Shown here piece by piece: positions 26,834-40,247 of a stretch of 64,000 bases of DNA; the first letter of the stretch is position 1, and every line of letters begins with the position of its first letter. A program made the translations under genes and the position numbers. A model generated the notes under the pieces. It saw nothing but the letters and a program-made list of their open reading frames with translations. It was not told the origin of the DNA and did no database searches. The DNA is taken from NCBI GenBank assembly GCA_023205875.1, contig CP060754.1, positions 124,001 through 188,000 on the forward strand. The letters are read 5' to 3'. This stretch comes from Chloropicon primus (taxonomy: Eukaryota).

Positions 26834-28474
26834 ATGCCGCCGAGGACTGCGACGGCGAATATCGCCATATTGATATGCTGCTGCCTGGGGAGCTTCATAC
26901 TGGTTTACATGTCCAAGTCTTTGTACTGGAAGCTGGATTCGTACTCGGATGTGCAGGACGTGCGGACCTTTCAGAAGGCGGACCTCTTGAAAGGAGCTTC
27001 GAGGCAAAAGTTGGGGAAGTTGCCCAAGCCGAGGCTCAAGGAAAATCGGGAGAAGATGAAGAAGAAGAAGACGAAGAAGAAGACGGCGAACCAAAAGGTT
27101 GAGGCCGCCAACATACAGGAGGAGGAGGTCTCCATCAATTGCTCGGAGTACGAGTGGAACCAGACGAATTTGCACAAGGGCATCCAGATCTTCACGGAGA
27201 AGCAGTGCGATTCTTACGAGCTCCTCACCAAGGGAAGGTCCCTCAAGCAGCAGAGAGGGATCGTTCGGGTCGATCGAAGGGTGGAGCTGACGGGCTGCCC
27301 AAGCGGGCAAAGTCTCGATTACGATCCCAGCCTGGACCACGTGACCGCCTATTGCGCCAACCAGACGGACGGTGTTCTGTATAACTTGGGCAGGAGCGGC
27401 CCTTACGCAGCCAGTATCTTGGGCACACACGCCAGCAACATCCTCGAGATGATGGACGGGACGCTGGTCCTGACTTCCTTCTACGGCGAGGAGGGGGGAC
27501 GCAACGTCAGCATAGTGTTCTCCAAGTTTGACCAGGAGGCGGGGAGGTGGAGTCCACCAAATGTCGTCAGCGGCGTCAAGGCCAGGTCGGCACAGAATCC
27601 TGTCCTCATTGCCGATCGAAGCGGCAAGCTTGTCCTCCTTCACACCTCTCAGCAAGCCGACAAGGGCCAGGGCACCTCCATGATCATCAAACTGGCTGCC
27701 AGGGCCCCCTTCGAGCGTTGGACCAAGCCCAAGCAGGTCAAGTTCCCTGGAAAAGAGGGGCCTTTCGTTAGGCACAAGATGGTCCTGAGCGAGAAAAAGA
27801 CGTGGCTGCTCCCCGTGTATTACACGCCGAAGGGTTACAGGGACATCGGGGAGCACTACACGGAGATGCTCGAGTCCAAAGACGCTGGGGAAACATGGAC
27901 AAGAAAGGGGGTGATGTCCGAAAAGGGGGAAAACTTAGCACAAGCCAGCGTCATCAGACTCAATGGGGGACAGCTTCTTGCATTCTTTAGATCAAGAAAA
28001 GAGAATTGGCTCTTCTCCAGCTTCTCTTACGACGATGGGGCGACTTGGACGAAAGCCATCCAGACTCAGCTTCCGAATAACAACTGCGGAGTCGCGGCAA
28101 CGCTGCTGGAATCCGGAGCGATCGCCCTCGTTTTCAACAACCAGAGAGATGACAGGTTTAGGTGGCCTCTGACCATCGCCCTTTCTTACGACGACGGCTT
28201 CACCTGGCCTTACCTGAGGGACATTGAGGACGATGACGAGACTCAGAAGCTGACGACCTGCCCGAGGTGCGTCTTTGGCAAGAAAGCGGAGTACAGCTAT
28301 CCTTCCATACTCCAGTCAAAGGATGGATACATTCACATCACTTACACGTATAAACGGTCCTTCATCAAGCACGTCAAGATCGGGGAGGAGTGGTGCAGGG
28401 AGGGCTCGACTTCGGGGGCTTTCCAAGGACACGAGCTCGGCCAGATGCCGAGTCTTCTGTTCCTTCTCCCTTAG
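26834..28474 (+). CDS. BNR/Asp-box repeat sialidase-like protein, type II membrane anchor
   Basis: Asp boxes SKDAGETW, SYDDGATW, SYDDGFTW; EYSYP; N-terminal TM segment. Confidence 0.8.
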   Translation: MPPRTATANIAILICCCLGSFILVYMSKSLYWKLDSYSDVQDVRTFQKADLLKGASRQKLGKLPKPRLKENREKMKKKKTKKKTANQKVEAANIQEEEVSINCSEYEWNQTNLHKGIQIFTEKQCDSYELLTKGRSLKQQRGIVRVDRRVELTGCPSGQSLDYDPSLDHVTAYCANQTDGVLYNLGRSGPYAASILGTHASNILEMMDGTLVLTSFYGEEGGRNVSIVFSKFDQEAGRWSPPNVVSGVKARSAQNPVLIADRSGKLVLLHTSQQADKGQGTSMIIKLAARAPFERWTKPKQVKFPGKEGPFVRHKMVLSEKKTWLLPVYYTPKGYRDIGEHYTEMLESKDAGETWTRKGVMSEKGENLAQASVIRLNGGQLLAFFRSRKENWLFSSFSYDDGATWTKAIQTQLPNNNCGVAATLLESGAIALVFNNQRDDRFRWPLTIALSYDDGFTWPYLRDIEDDDETQKLTTCPRCVFGKKAEYSYPSILQSKDGYIHITYTYKRSFIKHVKIGEEWCREGSTSGAFQGHELGQMPSLLFLLP

Positions 28475-28521
28475 GATATCGGGCACGATGTAAACAGTTT
28501 TTTATACAGCAAGATTCGCTT

Positions 28522-29883
28522 TTAGGGAAGGAGACAATCTCTTTCTTCTTCCTCCTCGAACAGCGTTTTGCCGGGCCTGTGAATAAGCGCCGACCCCAAG
28601 CAGACGTCCCCGTCGTACAAAACCAGAGCCTGTTCAGGCGTCACGGCTGCGTGTGGTTCGTCGAACTTCACATAGTGCAGAGGCCCTATCACGTCCGTCT
28701 CCTGGGAGCCAGAATGGTAGAACTTGGTGGGCTCGTCTTCCACCGGAGTTTTGGGGGAATAGAGGGTGCACTTTCCATCTTGCTCCAGGTATCTTGCTTT
28801 GAACTCGCACCTCAGCCTGCCCGTTCTGGCGTAGGCACCAGGTGGACTGAAACCAATCCAGTGGAGCTCCTTCAGAAATGCGCCGCGAGAAAACTGAGAG
28901 GGATGGTCCCTGTTCTCGGCGACATAAACGACTCCCTTGTCCACGTCTTTCCCCACGACATAGAAGGCCCCCCTGCCCCCAGACTCGATTCTCGAGCGCT
29001 GCCCGCGCGTGTACAGCTCCAAGCCCTCGTGCGTTCCCATACTCGAACCATCCACCGCCACAAACTCCCCCGGAGTAGGATAAATATATTGCTTAAGAAA
29101 GTTGGAGAACCTCCTTTTGCCAATGAAGCAGATCCCTGTGCTGCTCTTCTTGCCTGCGTTGGGCAGTCCGATCGAATCCGCGAGACCTCGGACTTGGTCT
29201 TTCGTCAAGGCCCCCACAGGAAACACCGTGCTCCCCAGCTGATCCTGGTTCAGTCTTGAAAGGAAGTACGTCTGGTCTTTTCTCTTGTCCAAGCCACGGA
29301 CTAGCCGCACTTGTTTCCGGCTCTCGCAGTAGCCCAGCCGCGCAAAGTGGCCTGTGGCAAGACCGGTGGCCCCCAACTCCTTTGCGCGTTTCATCAGAGC
29401 TCCGAACTTCATGAACTCGTTGCAGTACAGGTCTGGATTCGGCGTCTGCCCCGCGCCGAACCTTTCGATGTAGGGTTGGAACACGCTCTGCCAATACTCC
29501 GCCACGAGGTCTACCTCCACGAAAGGGATCGAGAGGTGAGCGCAAGCTTTCCTCGCAAAGGTTCTGTCCTCGGCCACAGTGCACCCGGACTCCCCTTCCT
29601 CGAGCTCATCCCAAGTCTTCATGTAGATCCCGAACACGTCGCAGCCCTGCTCCTTGAGGATGTACGCGGCAACGCTCGAGTCCACGCCCCCCGACATGGC
29701 CACCGCAATCCTCGGCTTCTCCGGGCCGTCGGCAGGTGCTGGAAGGTGGGACCAGGACGGCCGGACCAACGCTTCCCTCACCTTCTCGTCGCTGCTTGGC
29801 GAAAGCGTCGAGGCCCCCCTCCAGCAGGCTAGCAGCTTGCCGACCGGCGAGGTCGAGGCCCGGTGCCGGAAGCGCGGGATCAT
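28522..29883 (-). CDS. mnmA: tRNA-specific 2-thiouridylase MnmA/TRMU, organellar
   Basis: AMSGGVDSSV, TPNPDLYCN, ATGHFAR, KDQTYFL, GICFIG. Confidence 0.96.
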   Translation of the reverse strand: MIPRFRHRASTSPVGKLLACWRGASTLSPSSDEKVREALVRPSWSHLPAPADGPEKPRIAVAMSGGVDSSVAAYILKEQGCDVFGIYMKTWDELEEGESGCTVAEDRTFARKACAHLSIPFVEVDLVAEYWQSVFQPYIERFGAGQTPNPDLYCNEFMKFGALMKRAKELGATGLATGHFARLGYCESRKQVRLVRGLDKRKDQTYFLSRLNQDQLGSTVFPVGALTKDQVRGLADSIGLPNAGKKSSTGICFIGKRRFSNFLKQYIYPTPGEFVAVDGSSMGTHEGLELYTRGQRSRIESGGRGAFYVVGKDVDKGVVYVAENRDHPSQFSRGAFLKELHWIGFSPPGAYARTGRLRCEFKARYLEQDGKCTLYSPKTPVEDEPTKFYHSGSQETDVIGPLHYVKFDEPHAAVTPEQALVLYDGDVCLGSALIHRPGKTLFEEEEERDCLLP

Positions 29884-29927
29884 CCTCTCGACCCGTCCTG
29901 GACCGCGTGTATTTAAGCGCAAACCAA

Positions 29928-30233
29928 TCACTTGTCCTTCTCCTTCTCCTCCTTGAGGACCTTGGCCTCCCTGATGACGTAGTTGAGGCTGGCACCCAAG
30001 AGAACGGCGAGGGCGGCCATCACAGAGAAGTGGAACCTCAAGTCAATCTCCCCCGTGCCGTTGTCCTTGCCCTCGTCGTCGTCGTCGCCCCCCCCGCCTG
30101 CCGACAGGAAGGCCACCACCAGGCAAAGCGTCACGAGAAGCACCAGGCACCCGTTCAGAAACCAATACGTCGGCAAGTTCACCCCACTCGTGAACGCTCC
30201 TTTCACGATATCCTCCAACCACTTGACGAACAT
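29928..30233 (-). CDS. Pkr1-like ER membrane protein (V-ATPase assembly factor-like)
   Basis: Two TM segments; pattern 'AFTSGVN...HFSVMAALAVLLGASLNYVIRE' resembles Pkr1. Confidence 0.5.
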   Translation of the reverse strand: MFVKWLEDIVKGAFTSGVNLPTYWFLNGCLVLLVTLCLVVAFLSAGGGGDDDDEGKDNGTGEIDLRFHFSVMAALAVLLGASLNYVIREAKVLKEEKEKDK

Positions 30234-30457
30234 AAAGCCCCAACCACGTACGTCCGCAACAACCAACCACCACCAAGTTCTTCCCTCTCTCTCTCTACGC
30301 GACCGCGACGCGACGCTGACTGCCGCCCAGGACAAGAGGATGGATCTGGCCCCGGGCCAGCTCGTCCAGCTGGATCGATCGATCGACGAGGAGGGGGAGG
30401 AGTGTCGAGTGGTGTCAACAGATCGAGGCGAGGCGAGGCGCGCGAGAGGCGAGGAGG

Positions 30458-31924
30458 ATGGGGAGGGAGAGTGCAAGGTATGACTACGTGGTGGTGGGAG
30501 GTGGGGTGGCGGGGACGTGCTGCGCGAGGTTGTTGTGCTGCAAGGCGCCCAAGGCGTCGGTGTGCCTCGTGTCTCCCACGGAGAGCTTGAAGACCGTCAA
30601 AGTGGTGAAGCGCGTTACGGACAATCTCGACGAGCTCACTGTGATCGAGCAGCCCGTGGGGTCGTTCAACGACGCGAACCTGGAGTTCGCCAAGGACTAC
30701 GTCGAGAGCATCGACCCGGAGGAGAAGACCTTGGTGCTGGGCGGGGGCCGGAGGATCTCGTACGGGAAGCTCGCCGTGTGCACCGGTGCGAGCCCGAGGG
30801 TCCACCTGTCGGAGAGCCCCCGGCTGATCACGGTGAGGGACACGGACAGCGCCGAGTCCCTGAGGGAGGTGATATCCAGGTCGAACACGAGGCGGGTGGT
30901 GGTCGCGGGAAACGGCGCCATCGCCCTGGAGGTGATAAACAAGCTCAGCGGGGTCGAAGTGGTCTGGATCGTGAAGCATGACCACGTTGGAGACTCCCTT
31001 CTGGACGTGGACGTGGCCCTGCACTTGCTGGAGTCCTTCCAGAAGAGGAACAAGGGCACCTTGCGCGTGGACCAGAGCAGGGGGGGGGCGGAAGACCAGG
31101 GAGGGGGCGGGGGCGCGGCAGGAAAGATCAGGGAGGAGAGGTTCAGGACCCCGCCGGTGAAGCCCGACTTTGGCCACGCCCTCGGCCCCAAGTGGCACGA
31201 GGCCTTCCCCAAGTCCAAAGACGGCCGGGAGACGAGCTTGAGGGTGGTGTACAATAGGAAGCTCGTGGGTGTGGACGAGGGGACCGAGGGCGATTCCGAG
31301 GGGTGGCCAATCTCCGCCGTGCTTTCGGATGGGGAGAGAATTGGGGGCGACGTCATCATATCTTGCATCGGGGTCGTGCCAAACACGACGTGGCTTCCCA
31401 GAGATCGGTTTCAGATGGCGCCGGACGGCGGGCTCAGCGTGAGCGCCAGGCTGGAAACCAGCGTGAAGGACGTCTACGCCGCCGGGGACGTCTGCACCCT
31501 CGACGAGGAGAACCTCGGCCCCCAGTTCTTTCAGATCAGGCTGTGGTCCCAGGCCAGGATGATGGCCGAGTTCGCGGCTCACTGCATGACTGACTCGAAG
31601 GAAGCGGAGTTCTTGGACCTCGGCTTCGACCTCTTCACCCACGTGACCCACTTCTTCGGCTCCAAGGTGATTTTGCTCGGCCTGTACGACGGGCAGCGCC
31701 TGGCGGGGGAGCCGGAGAAGGACAAGGTCCTCTACACCCGAGAGACCGAGGACACCTTCGTCAGGGTGCTGCTCCTGAGGGGAAGGATGCAGGGCGCCGT
31801 GCTCGTGGGGGAGACCGACCTCGAAGAGGTCTTCGAGAATCTCATCCTCGGTGGAATAGACTTGTCCAGGTTCGGTCCCGAAATGCTCGACCCCGAGAAC
31901 GACATCGAGGACTTCTTTGATTAA
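30458..31924 (+). CDS. PYROXD1: Pyridine nucleotide-disulfide oxidoreductase domain-containing protein 1
   Basis: VVVGGGVAGTCCA, VRDTDS, GNGAIALE, ALGPKW, QIRLWSQAR, C-terminal DIEDFFD. Confidence 0.93.
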   Translation: MGRESARYDYVVVGGGVAGTCCARLLCCKAPKASVCLVSPTESLKTVKVVKRVTDNLDELTVIEQPVGSFNDANLEFAKDYVESIDPEEKTLVLGGGRRISYGKLAVCTGASPRVHLSESPRLITVRDTDSAESLREVISRSNTRRVVVAGNGAIALEVINKLSGVEVVWIVKHDHVGDSLLDVDVALHLLESFQKRNKGTLRVDQSRGGAEDQGGGGGAAGKIREERFRTPPVKPDFGHALGPKWHEAFPKSKDGRETSLRVVYNRKLVGVDEGTEGDSEGWPISAVLSDGERIGGDVIISCIGVVPNTTWLPRDRFQMAPDGGLSVSARLETSVKDVYAAGDVCTLDEENLGPQFFQIRLWSQARMMAEFAAHCMTDSKEAEFLDLGFDLFTHVTHFFGSKVILLGLYDGQRLAGEPEKDKVLYTRETEDTFVRVLLLRGRMQGAVLVGETDLEEVFENLILGGIDLSRFGPEMLDPENDIEDFFD

Positions 31925-32139
31925 GTTAAAGTAATAATAAACTAAGGGCCCCACGACCACCATCCATTCGTTCGTTGCGTGTTTGTCCAAAACCCAGCCC
32001 CTTATGGTGTTCAGACATCAGATCAAAAACAGCACACAGAAAAGTCACGAAAGGACGGTAGGGAAATCACAGTCAATACTGGAAGCACAGAGGCAAGTTC
32101 TCCTTTCCACTGAAAGAGAGAAACACGGAGAGAAACGAA

Positions 32140-32309
32140 GACCGGCCACAACTTACCTGTTAGTTTTCTGCAAAGGTCGTTTCACCGAGTTTGTAAGTTT
32201 CTCGGCAGGGTAATTCAGCCCTACCACGACCATTCCACCGTACATGAACGAACACTTCCGCCCACGCACGGCAGCCCGTACTAACAAACGTATGTGCAAC
32301 CCTGAGGAG
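32140..32309 (-). ncRNA. Candidate Fanzor omegaRNA scaffold
   Basis: Directly 3' of the Fanzor stop; nested stems whose G-U pairs work only on the minus strand; 7-bp loop/3' complementarity. Confidence 0.6.
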
Positions 32310-34481
32310 TTACACACTTTTTGGTTGACGCAAGTGCTTCAGGAGGACGTTGCGTGCCCCGTTCACATCCCGACCGCACTTGAAGCCACACTTCTGGCAC
32401 TTGTACACCTCTGCTCCACCCAGGTTGTCCTTGATGTGTCCGCACTTGCCACAGGTCTTGGAGGTGTACTCCTCCGTCACGATCGCCAGCTCACTGCCGT
32501 GCAAGAGCACCTTGGAAGCCAAGAACGTTCTGAACGCATAGTGCCTCAACGTCAAGAGCGTGCGAGCCGTCTTCTTCCTGATCACTCGGCGTCTCCCGTT
32601 GTTGTTCTTCTTCACCATGTCTTGGGACTTGAACTCCGGGAGGAGGATTGTGTCGAACCTCCTGCATAGATCGTTGGCTACCTTTTTGTGAAGCTCGTTC
32701 GTCAGACCTCGAAGTTTCTCCATGCAGGCGTATTGCTGTCTCTTCAAGTCGCGGCGGTCGAGGTAAGGGAGCTTCACCTTTGGGTCTTTGCGCTCGGAAA
32801 TGATCTCATCAATCCTCCAGCAGAGGTTGAACAGCCTCGCGAAGCCTCGCTCGCCCTTGGCATACTCCCCGACGCCTTCTTGCGGCGAGTACGACGTCTG
32901 AAAGGTCCTGACTCCCGGATCCAGGGCGACAACCTTCCGCTTGTTCTCAGGCTTCAGGGGTGGCAGGCGATCCCATGGCGTCGCGATGGGAATGTGCATG
33001 TGGAACTGCCCAAGGCGATTTCTTGTGATCTTCACGGCACCCTCGATCTTGCCCCCGGGGATCTCCTCCGTCAAGTACAGGGGCCCGCCGGCCATCTTCT
33101 TCTTGAACACCTCCAGCTTGGTCCACTTGCGTCGTTTGTTGTGCTTGGTGTCATCCTTGTGCCTCGTGTTTGGCCTTTCGATCGTCTCCACGTTCTTTAA
33201 CTCTCTTGCATCAATTTCAATGGTCCAAGAGCTCGGTTGCTGACGTTGACGATACTTGAGAACGAAGCGGTGCCCCTTCTCCTCGCCGCGCTCCTTCATC
33301 GCTTCCTGCTTCGCGATGTTCGAATCCCATGCCTTGATGAGACTTCGCACGGCAGCTTGTCTGATGGCACAGGGGGTATCCTTCAGCCAAGGATGCTTCT
33401 GATTTACAAAGGCCCCGCTAACGTAGTCCCGGTCCTTGCCCACTTGGATGCGAAAAGCTCTGCCTCCAATTTGGCTCTCGAGTCTCTTCTCTCTGGCCGC
33501 GAAAAGCTCTGCCTCCTGTTTTGTCCATGGCCGTGGAGAGCATTGGATTTCTTTCAGCTCTTTCTCCAGGCCCTCAAAGACCTCAGGGCCTCGAGGTTTG
33601 GCCGTCACAAATCTGTCCAGCAGGACGGTCCAAACCAGCGGAAAACGCTCCTTCTTGACCGCCTCCAAACACTTGTTGTATGTGAAACGCGCAGCTCCCA
33701 TCCAGTTGCAAAGGCACTTCGCCTGCTCAGGGTTCAAGCGCATCCTCAGCTTCCTCGTCCGTATCACCGTTCGCTCCGACAATAGCTTGGAGGTCTTCAG
33801 TTTCTGCCCCCTCTTCCTTTTGGCGGGCGACTGCAATGCCTCGACGGATACCACAGAATCTTCTGGAAGGTTCAAGCACGACCTCCATCCCGTCTTCGGA
33901 CACTTTACCTCTTCAAGTTCTCTCTTGATCGATGAGAACCAGGTCTTCTTCACGCTGTCGTCCGCCAAGCCACCCGGCTGCTTCCCTGCTTTCTTCCCCC
34001 TCTTGTTCTTCTTCTTCTTACCCTTCTTCTTGTTCTTCTTCTTGCCCTTCTTGCGAGGCTTCTTGCGAGGCTTGCCTGACGAGCTCGAACTCTCACCCGC
34101 AGAGGAAGCCGCCTCCGGCGGCTTCCCCTTCCGCTTCCCCCCCCGCTTCTTGCGAGGCGTGCTCGAACCCTCCTCGAAAGCAGAGGCGGGGTCGTCCAGC
34201 GGCTTCTCCTTCCGCTTCCGCCCCCGCTTCTTGCGAGGCGTGCTCGAACCCTCACCCGCAGAGGCGGGGTCGTCCGCGATAGGAAGCAGGCACAACGAGT
34301 AGAGCAACTGCAAGCCCTGATTCCAGAACCGACGTAACGGCCGCTCCGTCGTCGGAGACTCCTGCCCCGACTTCGAAGCGCCCTGAGCATGACTCTCGCC
34401 AGAGTGCGACCTCCTTGTGGAACTCGTCGAGCCACTCCCCTGCTTCTCCTTTTTCTTACGGCGCTTCCCTGATCGCGCCAT
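32310..34481 (-). CDS. Fanzor (Fanzor2/IS607-TnpB-like) RNA-guided endonuclease, 723 aa, intronless
   Basis: HTH/WED RTRKLRMRLNPEQ...WMGAARFTYN; RuvC-I VVALDPGVRTF; RuvC-II ILLPEF...EEYTSKTC; zinc ribbon CGKC..CQKC; RuvC-III GRDVNGARNV. Confidence 0.93.
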   Translation of the reverse strand: MARSGKRRKKKEKQGSGSTSSTRRSHSGESHAQGASKSGQESPTTERPLRRFWNQGLQLLYSLCLLPIADDPASAGEGSSTPRKKRGRKRKEKPLDDPASAFEEGSSTPRKKRGGKRKGKPPEAASSAGESSSSSGKPRKKPRKKGKKKNKKKGKKKKNKRGKKAGKQPGGLADDSVKKTWFSSIKRELEEVKCPKTGWRSCLNLPEDSVVSVEALQSPAKRKRGQKLKTSKLLSERTVIRTRKLRMRLNPEQAKCLCNWMGAARFTYNKCLEAVKKERFPLVWTVLLDRFVTAKPRGPEVFEGLEKELKEIQCSPRPWTKQEAELFAAREKRLESQIGGRAFRIQVGKDRDYVSGAFVNQKHPWLKDTPCAIRQAAVRSLIKAWDSNIAKQEAMKERGEEKGHRFVLKYRQRQQPSSWTIEIDARELKNVETIERPNTRHKDDTKHNKRRKWTKLEVFKKKMAGGPLYLTEEIPGGKIEGAVKITRNRLGQFHMHIPIATPWDRLPPLKPENKRKVVALDPGVRTFQTSYSPQEGVGEYAKGERGFARLFNLCWRIDEIISERKDPKVKLPYLDRRDLKRQQYACMEKLRGLTNELHKKVANDLCRRFDTILLPEFKSQDMVKKNNNGRRRVIRKKTARTLLTLRHYAFRTFLASKVLLHGSELAIVTEEYTSKTCGKCGHIKDNLGGAEVYKCQKCGFKCGRDVNGARNVLLKHLRQPKSV
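34050..34275 (-). repeat. Three imperfect ~78-81 bp tandem repeats encoding basic NLS-like units in the Fanzor N-terminus
   Basis: DDPASAGEGSSTPRKKRGRKRK / DDPASAFEEGSSTPRKKRGGKRK / EAASSAGESSSSSGKPRKKPRKK. Confidence 0.85.
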
Positions 34482-34698
34482 GACTGCTAGGGTTTCACTC
34501 GGCGTCCTCCTCCCTTCCTCTCGCGAGGTAAGATTTTTTACCAGTGCCTTGCCCAGCAAGTGAGAACACGAGCAAACATTTTGTGGGTTGTCCTTTGGGT
34601 GTGACCAAACTGGTATACACTGGAATCCCACCAACAGGGGAAAACCTCCAACACCGAAACGAAAAATGGGGGGAGGAAAAGATTAGACGAAGGAGGGA

Positions 34699-35277
34699 AT
34701 GATGATTGCTGCTGCTCGTTTGGGTGTCAGGTCTGTGGGGGGAAGAGGAAGAGGGCTCTTACTCACGACGAGGTCAAGGTCGGTTGGTAGAAGTGCGGCA
34801 ATGGCGGGGGGAGACTCGTTGTACAAGTACTCCGCCTTGGACATCGACGGCAAGGAGACAAAGTTGTCGAAGTTCGAGGGGAAGGTGAGCCTTGTTGTTA
34901 ACGTGGCGTCCTTCTGAGGCTCGACGAAGCAGTACGCAGGTCTCCAGAAGCTTTATGAAAAGTATGAGGACGACTTCGTAGTGCTCGCCTTCCCTTGCAA
35001 TCAATTTGGCAAGCAGGAGCCTGGAAGCGAAGCGGAGATAAAGGCTTTCGTGGCGGACAAGTACGGGGTGACGTTTCCTATGTTCTCGAAGATCGACGTC
35101 AAGGGCCCTGAGGCCCACCCGATCTACAAGTTCTTGCAGGCGAACGAGTCTGACGACGTGGGCTGGAACTTCTTCAAGTTTCTCGTCAACAAGGAGGGCG
35201 AGGTCGTCGGGAAGAGACACTCCAACAGAGTTACTCCCGAGGACCTGGACGACGATATTGCTGCCCTCGTGGGCTAA
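34699..35277 (+). CDS. GPX: Selenocysteine glutathione peroxidase, copy A (UGA=Sec at 34915-34917)
   Basis: VVNVASF-U-GST, LAFPCNQFG, WNFFKFLV all in one frame; SECIS downstream. Confidence 0.93.
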
Positions 35278-35344
35278 GCGCTTCCCGTCTTCCGAGCGAG
35301 CCTCCCTTGCGAGAGCAACCCGGTGCGGGGGCGGGACAGGGACA

Positions 35345-35400
35345 GAAGATCATGACCGGGGCACCTCAAATACGCATGGTGCTTTGTGATTACGACACGC
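35345..35400 (+). promoter_or_regulatory. SECIS element of GPX copy A
   Basis: ATGAC-cggggcacc-tc-AAA-tacgcat-ggtgctttg-TGAT: AUGA/GA quartet, 9-bp stem, apical AAA. Confidence 0.85.
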
Positions 35401-35507
35401 ATGAAAAATGCTAGCTTTTAACCTTTCCGCCCTTGTAAACGGAGTTTTTTTTGTTTTGTTGTTGTTTTACACGAAAACACGAGAACCAAAAAAATCGCTC
35501 AAGCAAT

Positions 35508-35590
35508 CACGTTCCCCCTCCCCCTCCGCCCATGGGAGTACTTGGAAGACACCATGGTCCGGTCCGGTCGCACTCTCGTTCCCCCCTCTT
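35508..35590 (-). pseudogene. ~80-bp inverted fragment of the 5' end of the GPX gene that starts at 39576
   Basis: Reverse complement of ~39545-39623 (ATGGTGTCTTCCAAGTACTCCCATGGGCGG...), with small indels upstream of the ATG. Confidence 0.85.
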
Positions 35591-35685
35591 GTTCCTCGGG
35601 GGTAAAATTGAATGGAGTCGAATCACGATAACGGACAAACGAGAGAGAGACGCAGACGCCAAGGAGACAAGGAGACAAGAGCACC

Positions 35686-36261
35686 ATGACTGAAGAGGAA
35701 GAGCAGGTTTCCCCTGTTTCGCCCGCGGAGTCGCCCGTCGTGGTGGAGTCCGAGGAGGTGCAGGAGGTGGTGGCACCACCAGAGCCGCTTCAGGAAGTCG
35801 AGCCCGAGCCGTTACCAGAGCCCGAGGTTTCGGAGGTTTTATCGAGCTCGAGGGCCGAGATGGAGAGAGCTTCCGCTGAAAAGAAGAGGCTGTCCATCCA
35901 AGGTGAGTCCCGGGCCTCACTCGAACGTTAAGGAGAGCCTCCCAAGCTGAGCCTCGTTCTTTTTCTTTCTCTCGCACACGCACGCACGACGACGACGACG
36001 ACGACAACACACAAAGCGGGACAGAGGGAGCTCGAGAAGATAAGAAAGGAGCTCGACGAGAAGGCTGCCGCGAAGAGGGATGCAGTGCGCGAGGCGAGCC
36101 AGAGAAGCGAGCAGAACAACATCGCCGACATGGCTCCCACGGCCACGAGGACCAAAGAGGAGTCGTGGGGTTTGGTCTGCGACTTGGTGGATTTCAAGAG
36201 GGACACGAAGGCGGACATGTCGGTGATGAGGGCCGTGCTCCTTCAGCTCAAGCACGGCTGA
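35686..36261 (+). CDS. CLC: Clathrin light chain, 2 exons (35686-35902, 36017-36261)
   Basis: Acidic N-terminus, coiled coil, C-terminal SWGLVCDLVDF...DMSVMRAVLLQLKH typical of clathrin light chains. Confidence 0.75.
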
Positions 36262-36328
36262 GACTTCTCGCCGAAGAAGTCGGCTGGGTTTTTCAACTCT
36301 TAACTCTTTCGTAAAGGTTTCGTTTCAG

Positions 36329-37397
36329 TTACATCGTGCCCGCTCCCCGCCACGCCGAGTTCTTCTTGAAGTCCGCCATGGTCTCTTCCACCATTTTGCT
36401 CACGCCGCTGGTCTCTCCGATGATCCCGTCGATCAAACCGAGCTCCAGGGCCTGCTCGGGTCCCAGAAACTTCTCCCTGTCGGTCTCCATCTCGATCTCC
36501 TCCACCGTCTTGCCGGTGTACTTGGAGAAAAGCTCGTTGGAGAACTTCATTTGCCTGTTCAGCTCCGCCGCGGTGATGTTGACCTCAACGAAGGAGCCCA
36601 TGGCGCCGCCCATCGGCTGCACCATCATGATGCGGGCATTCGGCATGGAATACCTCTTGCCCTTGTCGCCCGCCGCAAGGACGAGCGTGGAGTTGTGGGC
36701 CACGGAACCAAACGCTATCGTGGATATCGGCGACTTCATGGTGTTCATAACGTCAATGATCCCGGCGACATTATAGATGCTCCCTCCCGGGCTGTTCATG
36801 TAGAGTTTGATCTCCTGGGTGCTGTCCGTCTGCTCCAAAGCCATCAAGGAGCCCACAATCTGAGTAGTCGCCTGCGGGGTGGCGAAAGGGAAGACCCGGG
36901 GGGAGAAGAGAAGAGGTTTTAGGAAGGTTAGACGGGTGTTCAGGTTCGCTGGTCTCTTGCCGCCTGCGGGAGGCTTCTGCGGGGACTCGATCCGCCCTGC
37001 CGCACTTACGTCGTCGTTGAGGTAACCCGAAACAAACAAGATGCGGTTTTGGAGAAGGTACGTCATCATGTCCGTTGCCTGCGTTTCGCCGACCCGACCC
37101 GCCAAAAGCACACACGAAAAGAAAAATAGAGCCGCAGGTCAGAGTCTCCAGAGTCCCCTCTTCGCTCCCCGGGAGAGCGATCCTCACCTCATGCTCCCCG
37201 ATTTGGATAACCGGCTGTATCACGGGCCCCGCTGCAGCTACGACGGTTGTTTCAGCTTGAGCCTCCTTTCTTTGGTCCCTCGTCCTCCCCGCCTTGGGCC
37301 GCGAAGGTCCCTTCCTCTTGGAGGCATTCCCCACCGCCGCATCCCCTGCAGGCGCGAACCTCCCCCTCCTCACGTTCCTCGCTGCTACCCCCTTCAT
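36329..37397 (-). CDS. Plastid Clp protease core subunit, non-catalytic ClpR-type (ClpP6-related), multi-exon
   Basis: LLQNRILFV, YMNSPGGS, SMPNARIMM; the catalytic Ser and His positions are substituted. Confidence 0.8.
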
Positions 37398-37410
37398 CAC
37401 AGCAGTCCTC

Positions 37411-37442
<32 letters not shown>

Positions 37443-37585
37443 CCGCAACCGAAGGGGAAGGAGATCGAAAAAGGATAAGAGACGTCCTCGCGCGCCCAGG
37501 GGTGGTGGGAGGAGTGGAGTGGAGTGGAGTGGAGTGGAGTAGGTGTGTGGGTGTGGGTTGTGAATTGGTTGGAGGGAGGGGAGCG

Positions 37586-38623
37586 ATGGACGAGAGGACG
37601 GTGGAGGCGAACATCAGGCTGTACGATGGTCACGCCCAGCGGACGGCGCAGACGTACGAGCAGCAGAGACAGGCGAGGGAGTCGGGGGGGGCGTACCCCT
37701 TGAAGAAGTACCATAACCTGATAAAGGCGAAGCTGCTCAAGGAGTTCGCGCAGGACGCGGATTCGCTTCTGGACTTGTGCTGCGGGAGGGGGGGGGACAT
37801 CCACAAGTGGATCAATTGCAACGTCGGCAAGGTTTTGGGCGTTGACATCTCGACGATGGAGATCGTGGAGGCGAAGAGGCGGTACCTCGAGGCGAAGAAG
37901 AAGAGGCCCGGGGCGAGGCTGGAGGCCAAGTTCAACCACGTCGCTTGTTTGGGGACCAAGGAGTTGGATTGGGGGGCAAAGTACGACGTGGTCACCTGCA
38001 TGTTCGCGATTCACTACTTCTTCGTGAGCGAGGAAGCCATCAAGACGCTTTTCAGGAACGTCAAGGCCACCCTCAAGCCTGGTGGCTACTTCATCGCCAC
38101 CTTTCCCAGCGGGAAGAAGGTTCTGCAGACCCTGAATCAGAGGGAGGAGTACCGGACGCCGATGCTGTACCTCCGGAAACGCTGGGAGGGTCGGGACCCC
38201 AAGAGCCCTTTCGGTCAGGCTTTTGAGTGCGCGATCAGCGACACGGTGACAAGGGCCGAGAACGCGTCTCAGGAGGAGGTCGTGGGATCCAGGGAGTACC
38301 TCGTTTTCTTCAACGTCATCCAGGCCTTGGCCAAGGAGGTGAACATGTCGCTGGTGAAGACGTACCGGGGCGACGACGTGAACTGCCTGTTTCAGGACGA
38401 GGACGCCGCCTCGGGTTTCAAGCACTTCAAACCTCCTTTTGGGGACGGCGGCGACGACAGCCACCCGAGCTTGAAGAAAGCCAGCGAGCTGTACGTGGCG
38501 ACGGTTTTCCGGATGGGAGAGGAGGAGGAGGCGCAGCCGGCGAAGGCGGGAGCTGAAGGCGTCAAGAGGGGGAGGGAAAGCGGGGGGGAGGGGGAAGGCA
38601 GCGAGAAGAAGAAGAGGGCATGA
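37586..38623 (+). CDS. mRNA cap guanine-N7 methyltransferase family protein
   Basis: LKKYHNLIK, LDLCCGRGGDIHKW, CMFAIHYFF, LKPGGYF, EYLV. Confidence 0.88.
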   Translation: MDERTVEANIRLYDGHAQRTAQTYEQQRQARESGGAYPLKKYHNLIKAKLLKEFAQDADSLLDLCCGRGGDIHKWINCNVGKVLGVDISTMEIVEAKRRYLEAKKKRPGARLEAKFNHVACLGTKELDWGAKYDVVTCMFAIHYFFVSEEAIKTLFRNVKATLKPGGYFIATFPSGKKVLQTLNQREEYRTPMLYLRKRWEGRDPKSPFGQAFECAISDTVTRAENASQEEVVGSREYLVFFNVIQALAKEVNMSLVKTYRGDDVNCLFQDEDAASGFKHFKPPFGDGGDDSHPSLKKASELYVATVFRMGEEEEAQPAKAGAEGVKRGRESGGEGEGSEKKKRA

Positions 38624-38784
38624 TTCGTGCGCTGGTTCGTGTGCGCGTGCGCGCGCGGAGGGCTGAGCGGATTGGTGATTGCTTGAGCGATTTTTTTGGT
38701 TCTCGTGTTTTCGTGTAAAACAACAACAAAACAAAAAAAACTCCGTTTACAAGGGCGGAAAGGTTAAAAGCTAGCATTTTTCAT

Positions 38785-38840
38785 GCGTGTCGTAATCACA
38801 AAGCACCATGCGTATTTGAGGTGCCCCGGTCATGATCTTC
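38785..38840 (-). promoter_or_regulatory. SECIS element of GPX copy B
   Basis: Mirror image of 35345-35400. Confidence 0.85.
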
Positions 38841-38907
38841 TGTCCCTGTCCCGCCCCCGCACCGGGTTGCTCTCGCAAGGGAGGCTCGCTCGGAAGACGG
38901 GAAGCGC

Positions 38908-39486
38908 TTAGCCCACGAGGGCAGCAATATCGTCGTCCAGGTCCTCGGGAGTAACTCTGTTGGAGTGTCTCTTCCCGACGACCTCGCCCTCCTTGTTGAC
39001 GAGAAACTTGAAGAAGTTCCAGCCCACGTCGTCAGACTCGTTCGCCTGCAAGAACTTGTAGATCGGGTGGGCCTCAGGGCCCTTGACGTCGATCTTCGAG
39101 AACATAGGAAACGTCACCCCGTACTTGTCCGCCACGAAAGCCTTTATCTCCGCTTCGCTTCCAGGCTCCTGCTTGCCAAATTGATTGCAAGGGAAGGCGA
39201 GCACTACGAAGTCGTCCTCATACTTTTCATAAAGCTTCTGGAGACCTGCGTACTGCTTCGTCGAGCCTCAGAAGGACGCCACGTTAACAACAAGGCTCAC
39301 CTTCCCCTCGAACTTCGACAACTTTGTCTCCTTGCCGTCGATGTCCAAGGCGGAGTACTTGTACAACGAGTCTCCCCCCGCCATTGCCGCACTTCTACCA
39401 ACCGACCTTGACCTCGTCGTGAGTAAGAGCCCTCTTCCTCTTCCCCCCACAGACCTGACACCCAAACGAGCAGCAGCAATCATCAT
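38908..39486 (-). CDS. GPX: Selenocysteine glutathione peroxidase, copy B (UGA at 39270-39268)
   Basis: Same peptide sequence as copy A. Confidence 0.93.
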
Positions 39487-39575
39487 TCCCTCCTTCGTCT
39501 AATCTTTTCCTCCCCCCATTTTTCGTTTCGGACGGAAAACCAAACAGAGGGGGAACGAGAGTGCGACCCCGGACC

Positions 39576-40247
39576 ATGGTGTCTTCCAAGTACTCCCATG
39601 GGCGGAGGGGGAGGGGGAACGTGGGTTCGTTGCCGAAAGCGGTAGTAGGCTTGACCTTGCTTGCTGCGGGGTTTTACGTGGTCACGAGACTGGGGTTGGG
39701 AGGAAGACAGGCGCAGAGACCACACGCTGTGAGCTTGAGCGCTCCGGGAGGGGAAGCAGCGAAGCAGCCCGTGTACGACTCGTTGTACAAGTACACCGCC
39801 TTGGACATCGATGGGGTAGAGACTAAATTGTCGAAATTCGAGGGGAAGGTGTCGCTTATTGTGAACACGGCCACGTACTGAGGCTCGACGTACCAGTACG
39901 GCGACCTCCAAAAGCTGTACGAGAAGCACAAGAAGAGGGGGCTCGTCGTGATGGGCTTTCCTTGCAATCAATTTGGGAGGCAGGAGCCTCACGACGAGGC
40001 TACGATCAAGCAGTTTGTGGCGGACAAGTACGGGGTGACGTTTCCTATGTTTTCCAAAGTTGAGGTCAAAGGGCCTCATGCTCATCCCATATTTCGTTTC
40101 CTGACCTCCAGCGAGAAGGCCGGAACGGAGGAGATTGGGTGGAACTTCTTCAAGTTCTTGGTCGATCGGAACGGCCACGTCGTCAAGAGGTACAAAGGCG
40201 CTGACAAGCCCTTCGCAATCGAGAAGGACATTCTCGAACTCTTGTGA
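39576..40247 (+). CDS. GPX: Selenocysteine glutathione peroxidase paralog with N-terminal membrane/signal anchor (UGA at 39879-39881)
   Basis: IVNTATY-U-GST, MGFPCNQFG, WNFFKFLV in frame; hydrophobic AVVGLTLLAAGFYVV. Confidence 0.92.

Follow-up and report, generated by a model that had tools for sequence, protein, structure and literature searches.

Fanzor2* elements of the alga Chloropicon primus form a family of non-autonomous transposons with short terminal repeats and a variable 5-nt target-site duplication (TSD) (PMC10711439 and its preprint), and 28 and 30 members are annotated in two published C. primus genomes (PMC12301720). The effects of Fanzor-carrying elements on native genomes are little documented in the literature searched. 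The closest described systems are maize Ac/Ds alternative transposition and composite insertions (PMC4270019), circle-mediated duplications involving extrachromosomal circular DNA (eccDNA) (PMC7188851), and staggered-break inversions (PMC1885836), also described as dupINVdup (PMC5338099). In the Ac/Ds system a duplication edge lies exactly at a transposon end, the broken ends are fused afterwards, and replication or a sister chromatid is involved; Ac requires two neighboring elements, each contributing a terminus, and carries copies of element ends and of donor flanks to the target. In eccDNA duplications the two parts of the donor are swapped, its outer ends are joined and the circle is opened once inside the donor, with the published caution that nearby copies can arise through nested events too (PMC7188851). 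Staggered-break inversions leave inverted duplications on both sides of the inverted block. This study concerns a Fanzor2* element and the glutathione peroxidase (GPX) genes beside it in a 64,000-nt stretch of the C. primus genome (assembly GCA_023205875.1, contig CP060754.1, positions 124,001 to 188,000, forward strand; hereafter the window, whose coordinates are used throughout).

At this locus, a whole selenoprotein glutathione peroxidase gene was likely duplicated at the end of the Fanzor element. The account that we favor, as reasonably probable, is that a transposase cut at the left end of the element captured a neighboring piece of DNA as an inverted, rotated 929-bp copy, and that the intervening genes were not inverted. 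The insert is composed of two donor parts in swapped order, its edge lies exactly at the left end of the element, the right end of the element is clipped, and three microhomologies mark the junctions. The features that bear directly on this account are the following.

31998..32002, + strand: CCCCT outside the right end of the element; candidate TSD, first copy
32003..34653, - strand: Fanzor2* non-autonomous transposon of ~2.65 kb; left end intact (TGTTGGAGG), right end without the terminal TGTTG(T)
32310..34481, - strand: Fanzor2 open reading frame (ORF) of 723 aa with helix-turn-helix (HTH), RuvC-type and zinc-finger motifs
34654..35582, + strand: insert of 929 bp; inverted copy of 38675-39623, circularly permuted and carrying one 3-bp insertion, from alignment to the doubled donor
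34654..35510, + strand: arm a, same as 38675-39531 (alignment)
34699..35277, + strand: GPX-A, probable new copy; ORF complete if UGA73 is selenocysteine (PF00255)
35352..35390, + strand: selenocysteine insertion sequence (SECIS)-like hairpin (AUGA..AAA..GA), present also in two relatives; without an Rfam match
35508..35510, + strand: CAC microhomology joining the two donor ends
35508..35593, - strand: arm b', inverted copy of the GPX2 5' end (alignment); last 7-11 bp common with the host flank
35583..35587, + strand: CCCCT, candidate displaced second TSD copy
38675..39623, no strand: putative donor interval of 949 bp with GTG at both ends
38908..39486, - strand: GPX-B, probable original copy; convergent with the cap methyltransferase gene (capMT), as in two relatives
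39532..39548, no strand: 17-21 bp of donor absent from the insert; ancestral spacer (best reading) or filler (inversion reading)
39576..40247, + strand: GPX2, older paralogue, 78% nucleotide identity over 301 bp; in-frame UGA

The repeat pairs reported in the original prediction are real. Arm a (34654-35510) and its inverted partner a' (38675-39531) are identical over 857 bp (100%, 0 differences), and the second inverted pair of ~80 bp, b' (35508-35593) and b (39543-39623), aligns over 86 columns with 5 gap columns and a 55-bp perfect core. The trinucleotide CAC at 35508-35510 is common to arm a and arm b', that is, to both donor ends; alignment of these ends thus bears out the junction microhomology that had been noted there, and fusion of the two GTG donor ends yields exactly this junction. 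In the circular-permutation test, the insert covered 926 of the 946 circle bases in rotated order, with 17-21 bp missing. The insert meets the host flank through a CCCCTCT microhomology, and this junction explains two of the three points at which b' departs from b. The three junctions carry microhomologies of 2, 3 and 7 bp. Additionally, the CCCCT outside the right end of the element (31998-32002) recurs 929 bp beyond its left end, at 35583-35587; such a recurrence is expected by chance in 3% of cases by a lenient estimate.

The element belongs to the Fanzor2* family, with a Fanzor2 ORF bearing HTH and TNB domains and no transposase within the element; of the end features, the left end is intact, the right end is clipped, and the TSD is present as a displaced candidate only. 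Its ends were set from three hemizygous copies recovered by a motif search of the indel table in PMC6731263 (225 rows), which also indicate that the family is mobile. The Chr17 copy begins GTGTTGGAGG and is then unlike the window outside, placing the left end at 34653 or 34654. The right end reads TGTTGTTATGG in the Chr6 copy and TTGTTATGG in the Chr3 copy, whereas the window has CCCC and then TTATGG at 32002, so that 5-6 terminal bases are gone relative to those copies; this copy differs from the family as published in its clipped right end and in its lack of an adjacent TSD. The duplication edge coincides with the left end of the element within 0-2 nt and lies 172 bp upstream of the Fanzor ATG (34481), which matches the edge predicted about 170 bp upstream of that codon at the element end, where the other copies also place it. 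The chance of an edge falling at an element end is ~4e-5 per rearrangement (29 copies, 17.5 Mb, 3-nt tolerance). The nearest of 21 listed paralogues of the Fanzor protein is 97.6% identical over the full length (98.4% over part), as against 0/857 differences between the arms; therefore, the element is probably older than the duplication.

The genes that surround the element and the duplication are listed below.

30458..31924, + strand: PYROXD1-like oxidoreductase, left anchor gene (Pfam Pyr_redox_2; C. roscoffensis relative WZN61256.1)
35686..36261, + strand: clathrin-light-chain-like gene (CLC), weak assignment, approximate exon limits
36329..37400, - strand: ClpP/ClpR-family gene (ClpR), 5' limit approximate (PF00574)
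37586..38623, + strand: mRNA cap guanine-N7 methyltransferase, capMT (PF03291; C. roscoffensis relative WZN61259.1)

Gene order and strands agree with those first described, and Pfam confirmed the GPX (PF00255), Clp protease (PF00574) and cap methyltransferase (PF03291) labels. For CLC, the predicted strand and position held, and the PF01086 match behind the clathrin light chain label is weak (E=0.008; 16.6 bits, under the family cut-off of 22 bits). The oxidoreductase at 30458..31924 is presumably a PYROXD1, a name that we supply for a gene to which Pfam gives Pyr_redox_2 only. Where relatives of the Fanzor and of the adjacent proteins carry a species name, it is C. primus.

Under the favored account, the ancestral order would have been PYROXD1, element, CLC, ClpR, capMT, GPX-B and GPX2. 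A transposase acting in trans would separate the left end of the element from its flank; the left end would be joined, with a 2-bp CC overlap, to one side of a site that lies between GPX-B and GPX2 at a distance of 4.9 kb, the freed flank would join the other side of that site via CCCCTCT with the loss of 17-21 bp, and the outer donor ends would be joined via CAC. The outcome would equal the integration of a 946-bp circle opened once, and the same junctions would be expected whether a DNA circle formed first or the circle came from sister-chromatid exchange. With its right end clipped, the element may have reacted at one end only.

The locus resembles a circle-mediated duplication with one edge of the alternative-transposition type. 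As in eccDNA duplications, the two parts of the donor are swapped around joined outer ends; the differences are the small size of the copy, its distance of ~4 kb from the donor and its position against a transposon terminus. As in Ac/Ds-type alternative transposition, the breakpoint lies exactly at a transposon terminus, whereas only one element is present (self-BLAST found no second copy in the window, as opposed to the two required by Ac), no element sequence was copied, and target flanks land at the donor. A staggered-break inversion ends in the same arrangement, a block flanked on either side by inverted duplications, and requires that block to be inverted relative to an outgroup; the indirect test available here says that it is not. 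The locus thus conforms to the full definition of neither the two-element Ac case nor the staggered-break inversion. The processes themselves are known already; at a Fanzor element no report was found in the literature searched by title and start of abstract, a scope that leaves subscription papers outside, and the available parts of PMC10711439 and its preprint mention no rearrangement at any Fanzor2* copy. The locus shows, to the exact base, a host gene duplicated at the end of a Fanzor element, and the host is a small alga kept in culture, with 28-30 copies annotated.

The same repeats had originally been read as a single staggered-break inversion that duplicated both ends, starting from the order GPX(+), capMT(-), ClpR(+), CLC(-), GPX2(+). 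That inversion and that order were deduced and not observed, and a rotated insertion gives an identical sequence; inverted repeats on either side of a block, commonly taken for the trace of an inversion that duplicated its ends, can also come from the insertion of a rotated copy without any inversion, and only an outgroup tells the two apart. In its favor, one staggered-break or template-switch inversion of CLC-ClpR-capMT (dupINVdup) with an edge at the element would produce the observed sequence from two new junctions only and belongs to a well-documented class (PMC1885836); in a variant, an inverted GPX copy was inserted at GPX2 and the block was flipped later via the 857-bp repeats. In C. 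roscoffensis, the PYROXD1 relative (WZN61256.1) and the capMT relative (WZN61259.1) are on one 1,247,473-bp chromosome with two annotated genes between them, an order taken from accession numbers in which the two intervening genes are known by count only. Accession numbers track gene order in C. primus (QDZ17576 is gene 94 and QDZ17586 is gene 104), and the same was assumed for C. roscoffensis. Two intervening genes fit a history without inversion (CLC and ClpR), whereas an inversion predicts one; therefore, synteny with C. roscoffensis, a kind of check that the original prediction had named for related strains, indicates indirectly through accession numbers that the block is not inverted.

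Target-site sequences point the same way. An inversion would make the left-end flank the original one, so that TTCGG would be expected again at the right end, yet 0 of 12 4-6-mers from the left flank were found in the 81 bp beyond the right end, a test weakened by the clipping of that end. It would also leave the displaced CCCCT match as chance. The idea that the left end had templated the filler at 39532-39547 (score 18; P=0.001 relative to random 24-mers) was rejected, with P=0.07 against shuffles and ~0.17 when allowing for five 81-bp zones; the likeness to the element end that an inversion might invoke is therefore not significant. The convergent capMT-GPX adjacency in relatives L001 and L002, and a ClpR-capMT adjacency in relatives that is weak (13 residues, E=0.17), are compatible with an inversion and fit both histories; of 80 metagenomic loci, 2 were closely related, and neither extended past GPX. 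For the donor as the ancestral interval, the outgroup spacing fits, and GPX next to GPX2 was seen in none of the relatives. Taken together, the outgroup spacing and the target-site tests, both of them indirect, make it likely that the genes between the two copies were never inverted, and the earlier inversion model is correspondingly unlikely.

Several points weigh against the transposase account. The evidence for the element ends comes from three noisy long-read consensus cells, each cut at 400 letters, and the comparison with 21 listed paralogues left out the orthologous element protein. A transposase is neither in the element nor identified in the available parts of the PMC10711439 preprint, and the genome was not searched for one. 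A split or extra gene in C. roscoffensis would mimic the two-gene spacing. The CCCCT motif is of low complexity and overlaps the donor's own C run, and the test built on it presumes that the right end lost element bases only. No TSD of the new site survives, its other half being among the 17-21 bp lost, and the target would have been tight, as GPX-B and GPX2 stand head to head with 90 bp between their ATGs. With regard to the missing transposase, the TGT...ACA ends are shared with Ginger2/TDD and IS481EU elements (PMC2836005, PMC10045372), of which Ginger2/TDD have 4-5-bp TSDs; these are a lead only.

A duplication that took place without element enzymes, with the element inserted at the junction later or marking a fragile spot, would account for the 2-7 bp microhomology at all three junctions, as ordinary repair leaves, and circle-mediated duplications are known without transposons (PMC7188851). 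A later insertion, however, should have left the element directly flanked by two copies of one 5-mer, and this is not there; the element also looks older than the arms, and the exact edge would be a coincidence of ~4e-5. We regard this explanation as quite improbable.

The original prediction had also suggested a nuclease- or transposition-induced rearrangement. Of this suggestion, the link to the element stands, since the edge is at its exact left end, and a nuclease fits less well than a transposase cut. In the nuclease version, the Fanzor2 enzyme would have cut the empty homologue in the diploid host, and homing-type repair would have gone astray, copying the donor in two pieces, either before or after the element was copied, and so duplicating the host selenoprotein gene. 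The Fanzor ORF looks intact, the alga is mostly diploid with hemizygous element copies (PMC12301720, PMC6731263), the clipped right end is on the side where a cut would fall, and a heterozygous tract of the published strain ends within ~7 kb including the element (1.6% per edge, post hoc). Tested Fanzor2 enzymes, however, cut 9-19 nt into the guide-matching flank (PMC10432273), that is, on the right-end side of an empty allele; the left-end edge is therefore explained poorly, since it is the left terminus, the cutting point of a transposase, that carries the new junction. Additionally, the literature examined gives no guide RNA or target-adjacent motif (TAM) for this protein. It seems doubtful at best that a Fanzor cut was the trigger. 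If it were, the locus would document, in nature, how a Fanzor has reshaped the genome of its host. With 28-30 copies and hemizygous insertions available, the transposase and nuclease causes should be separable by sequencing.

An artefact of the assembly, through the merging of haplotypes or the wrong resolution of a repeat, could be suspected because the arms are 100% identical and because the published strain has three variants near 50% on arm b and at its edge. In Supplementary Data 2 of PMC6731263 the genes run 01p00980 (IS605 transposase), 00990 (GPX), 01000 (hypothetical), 01010 (ClpP), 01020 (cap methyltransferase) and 01030 (GPX), and gene 01040 of the same assembly is also a GPX, so that this long-read-based assembly has the same seven genes in the same order as the window. 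The span between protein-difference anchors is 12,161 bp there and 12,172-12,175 bp in the window; at nearly the same length, the published span is long enough to contain the element as well as the insert. The published assembly is a separate sequence, since its sialidase differs from that of the window at two residues and its GPX2 at one, and the published large-indel table has no entry at this locus. An artefact, which the original prediction had raised against itself, is thus not obvious when a second assembly agrees in order and, within 14 bp, in span, and we consider it highly improbable.

The three variants of the published strain, at frequencies of 45-49%, correspond to window positions 39556, 39565 and 39624. 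Position 39624 lies immediately outside b, and the reference base of this variant equals the base after the junction in the left copy; the variant at 39556 has no match to the window letters at that offset. Cross-mapping between b and b' is the simplest reading, and a second allele is also possible. Chr1 of the published strain has 74 heterozygous sites over its initial 170 kb and then a long, nearly homozygous tract to ~514 kb. The edge of the heterozygous tract (published Chr1 169,825 onward; window ~27450-34650) falls in a ~7-kb range that includes the element, which by chance would occur at 1.6% per edge, a figure obtained post hoc.

Arm a contains the whole glutathione peroxidase ORF with its in-frame UGA. 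As far as the sequence indicates, GPX-A retains the ORF and the SECIS-like hairpin, with only 45 bp of its own upstream DNA. The hairpin at 35352..35390 is SECIS-like by its motif; the Rfam search returned no match for it and 2 chance-level matches only. An in-frame UGA is present in both GPX types, at 34915-34917 in GPX-A and 39879-39881 in GPX2. The deposited GPX2 protein (QDZ17586.1) is short of 27 residues around the in-frame UGA, and GPX2 is therefore probably a mis-annotated selenoprotein. Among the best 120 of 851 matches in a GPX protein search, no Chloropicon protein was evident.

Several observations concern the element itself. Its inner inverted motifs CCTGTTAGT (32157-32166) and CCTGTTGGT (34629-34637) are set back from the two ends by 150 and 16 bp. 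The reading of the inner CCTGTT motifs (32157 and 34630-34637) as IS607-style ends was rejected, as the three other copies reach past them; the motifs are possibly relics of older ends, and possibly also a guide-RNA end giving a fixed guide. At 34114-34278, an 81-bp imperfect tandem duplication falls in the lysine/arginine-rich N-terminus of the Fanzor ORF, a region that varies among copies. The hemizygous copies at Chr3:123680 and Chr6:369520 have 23-24 extra nt outside the visible right end, and the hemizygous copy with a visible left end has only 3 extra nt outside. The 23-24 extra nt could be a long TSD as in IS481EU, lost guide-matching flank of the empty allele, or alignment noise; were the nuclease explanation true, they would be scars of the same cutting.

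Searches of viral contigs gave 0 matches each for the element motif, the Fanzor protein and PYROXD1, and 80 distant loci for capMT; a prokaryotic genome search gave 3 loci, all distant. Metagenomic Fanzor relatives (P0006-P0010) share 40-58% identity, which suggests related Fanzor elements in other marine organisms. Within the window, the three genes at 35511-38674 are flanked by the perfect 857-bp inverted repeats and have the same orientation in both C. primus assemblies; with such repeats on either side, these genes could now flip.

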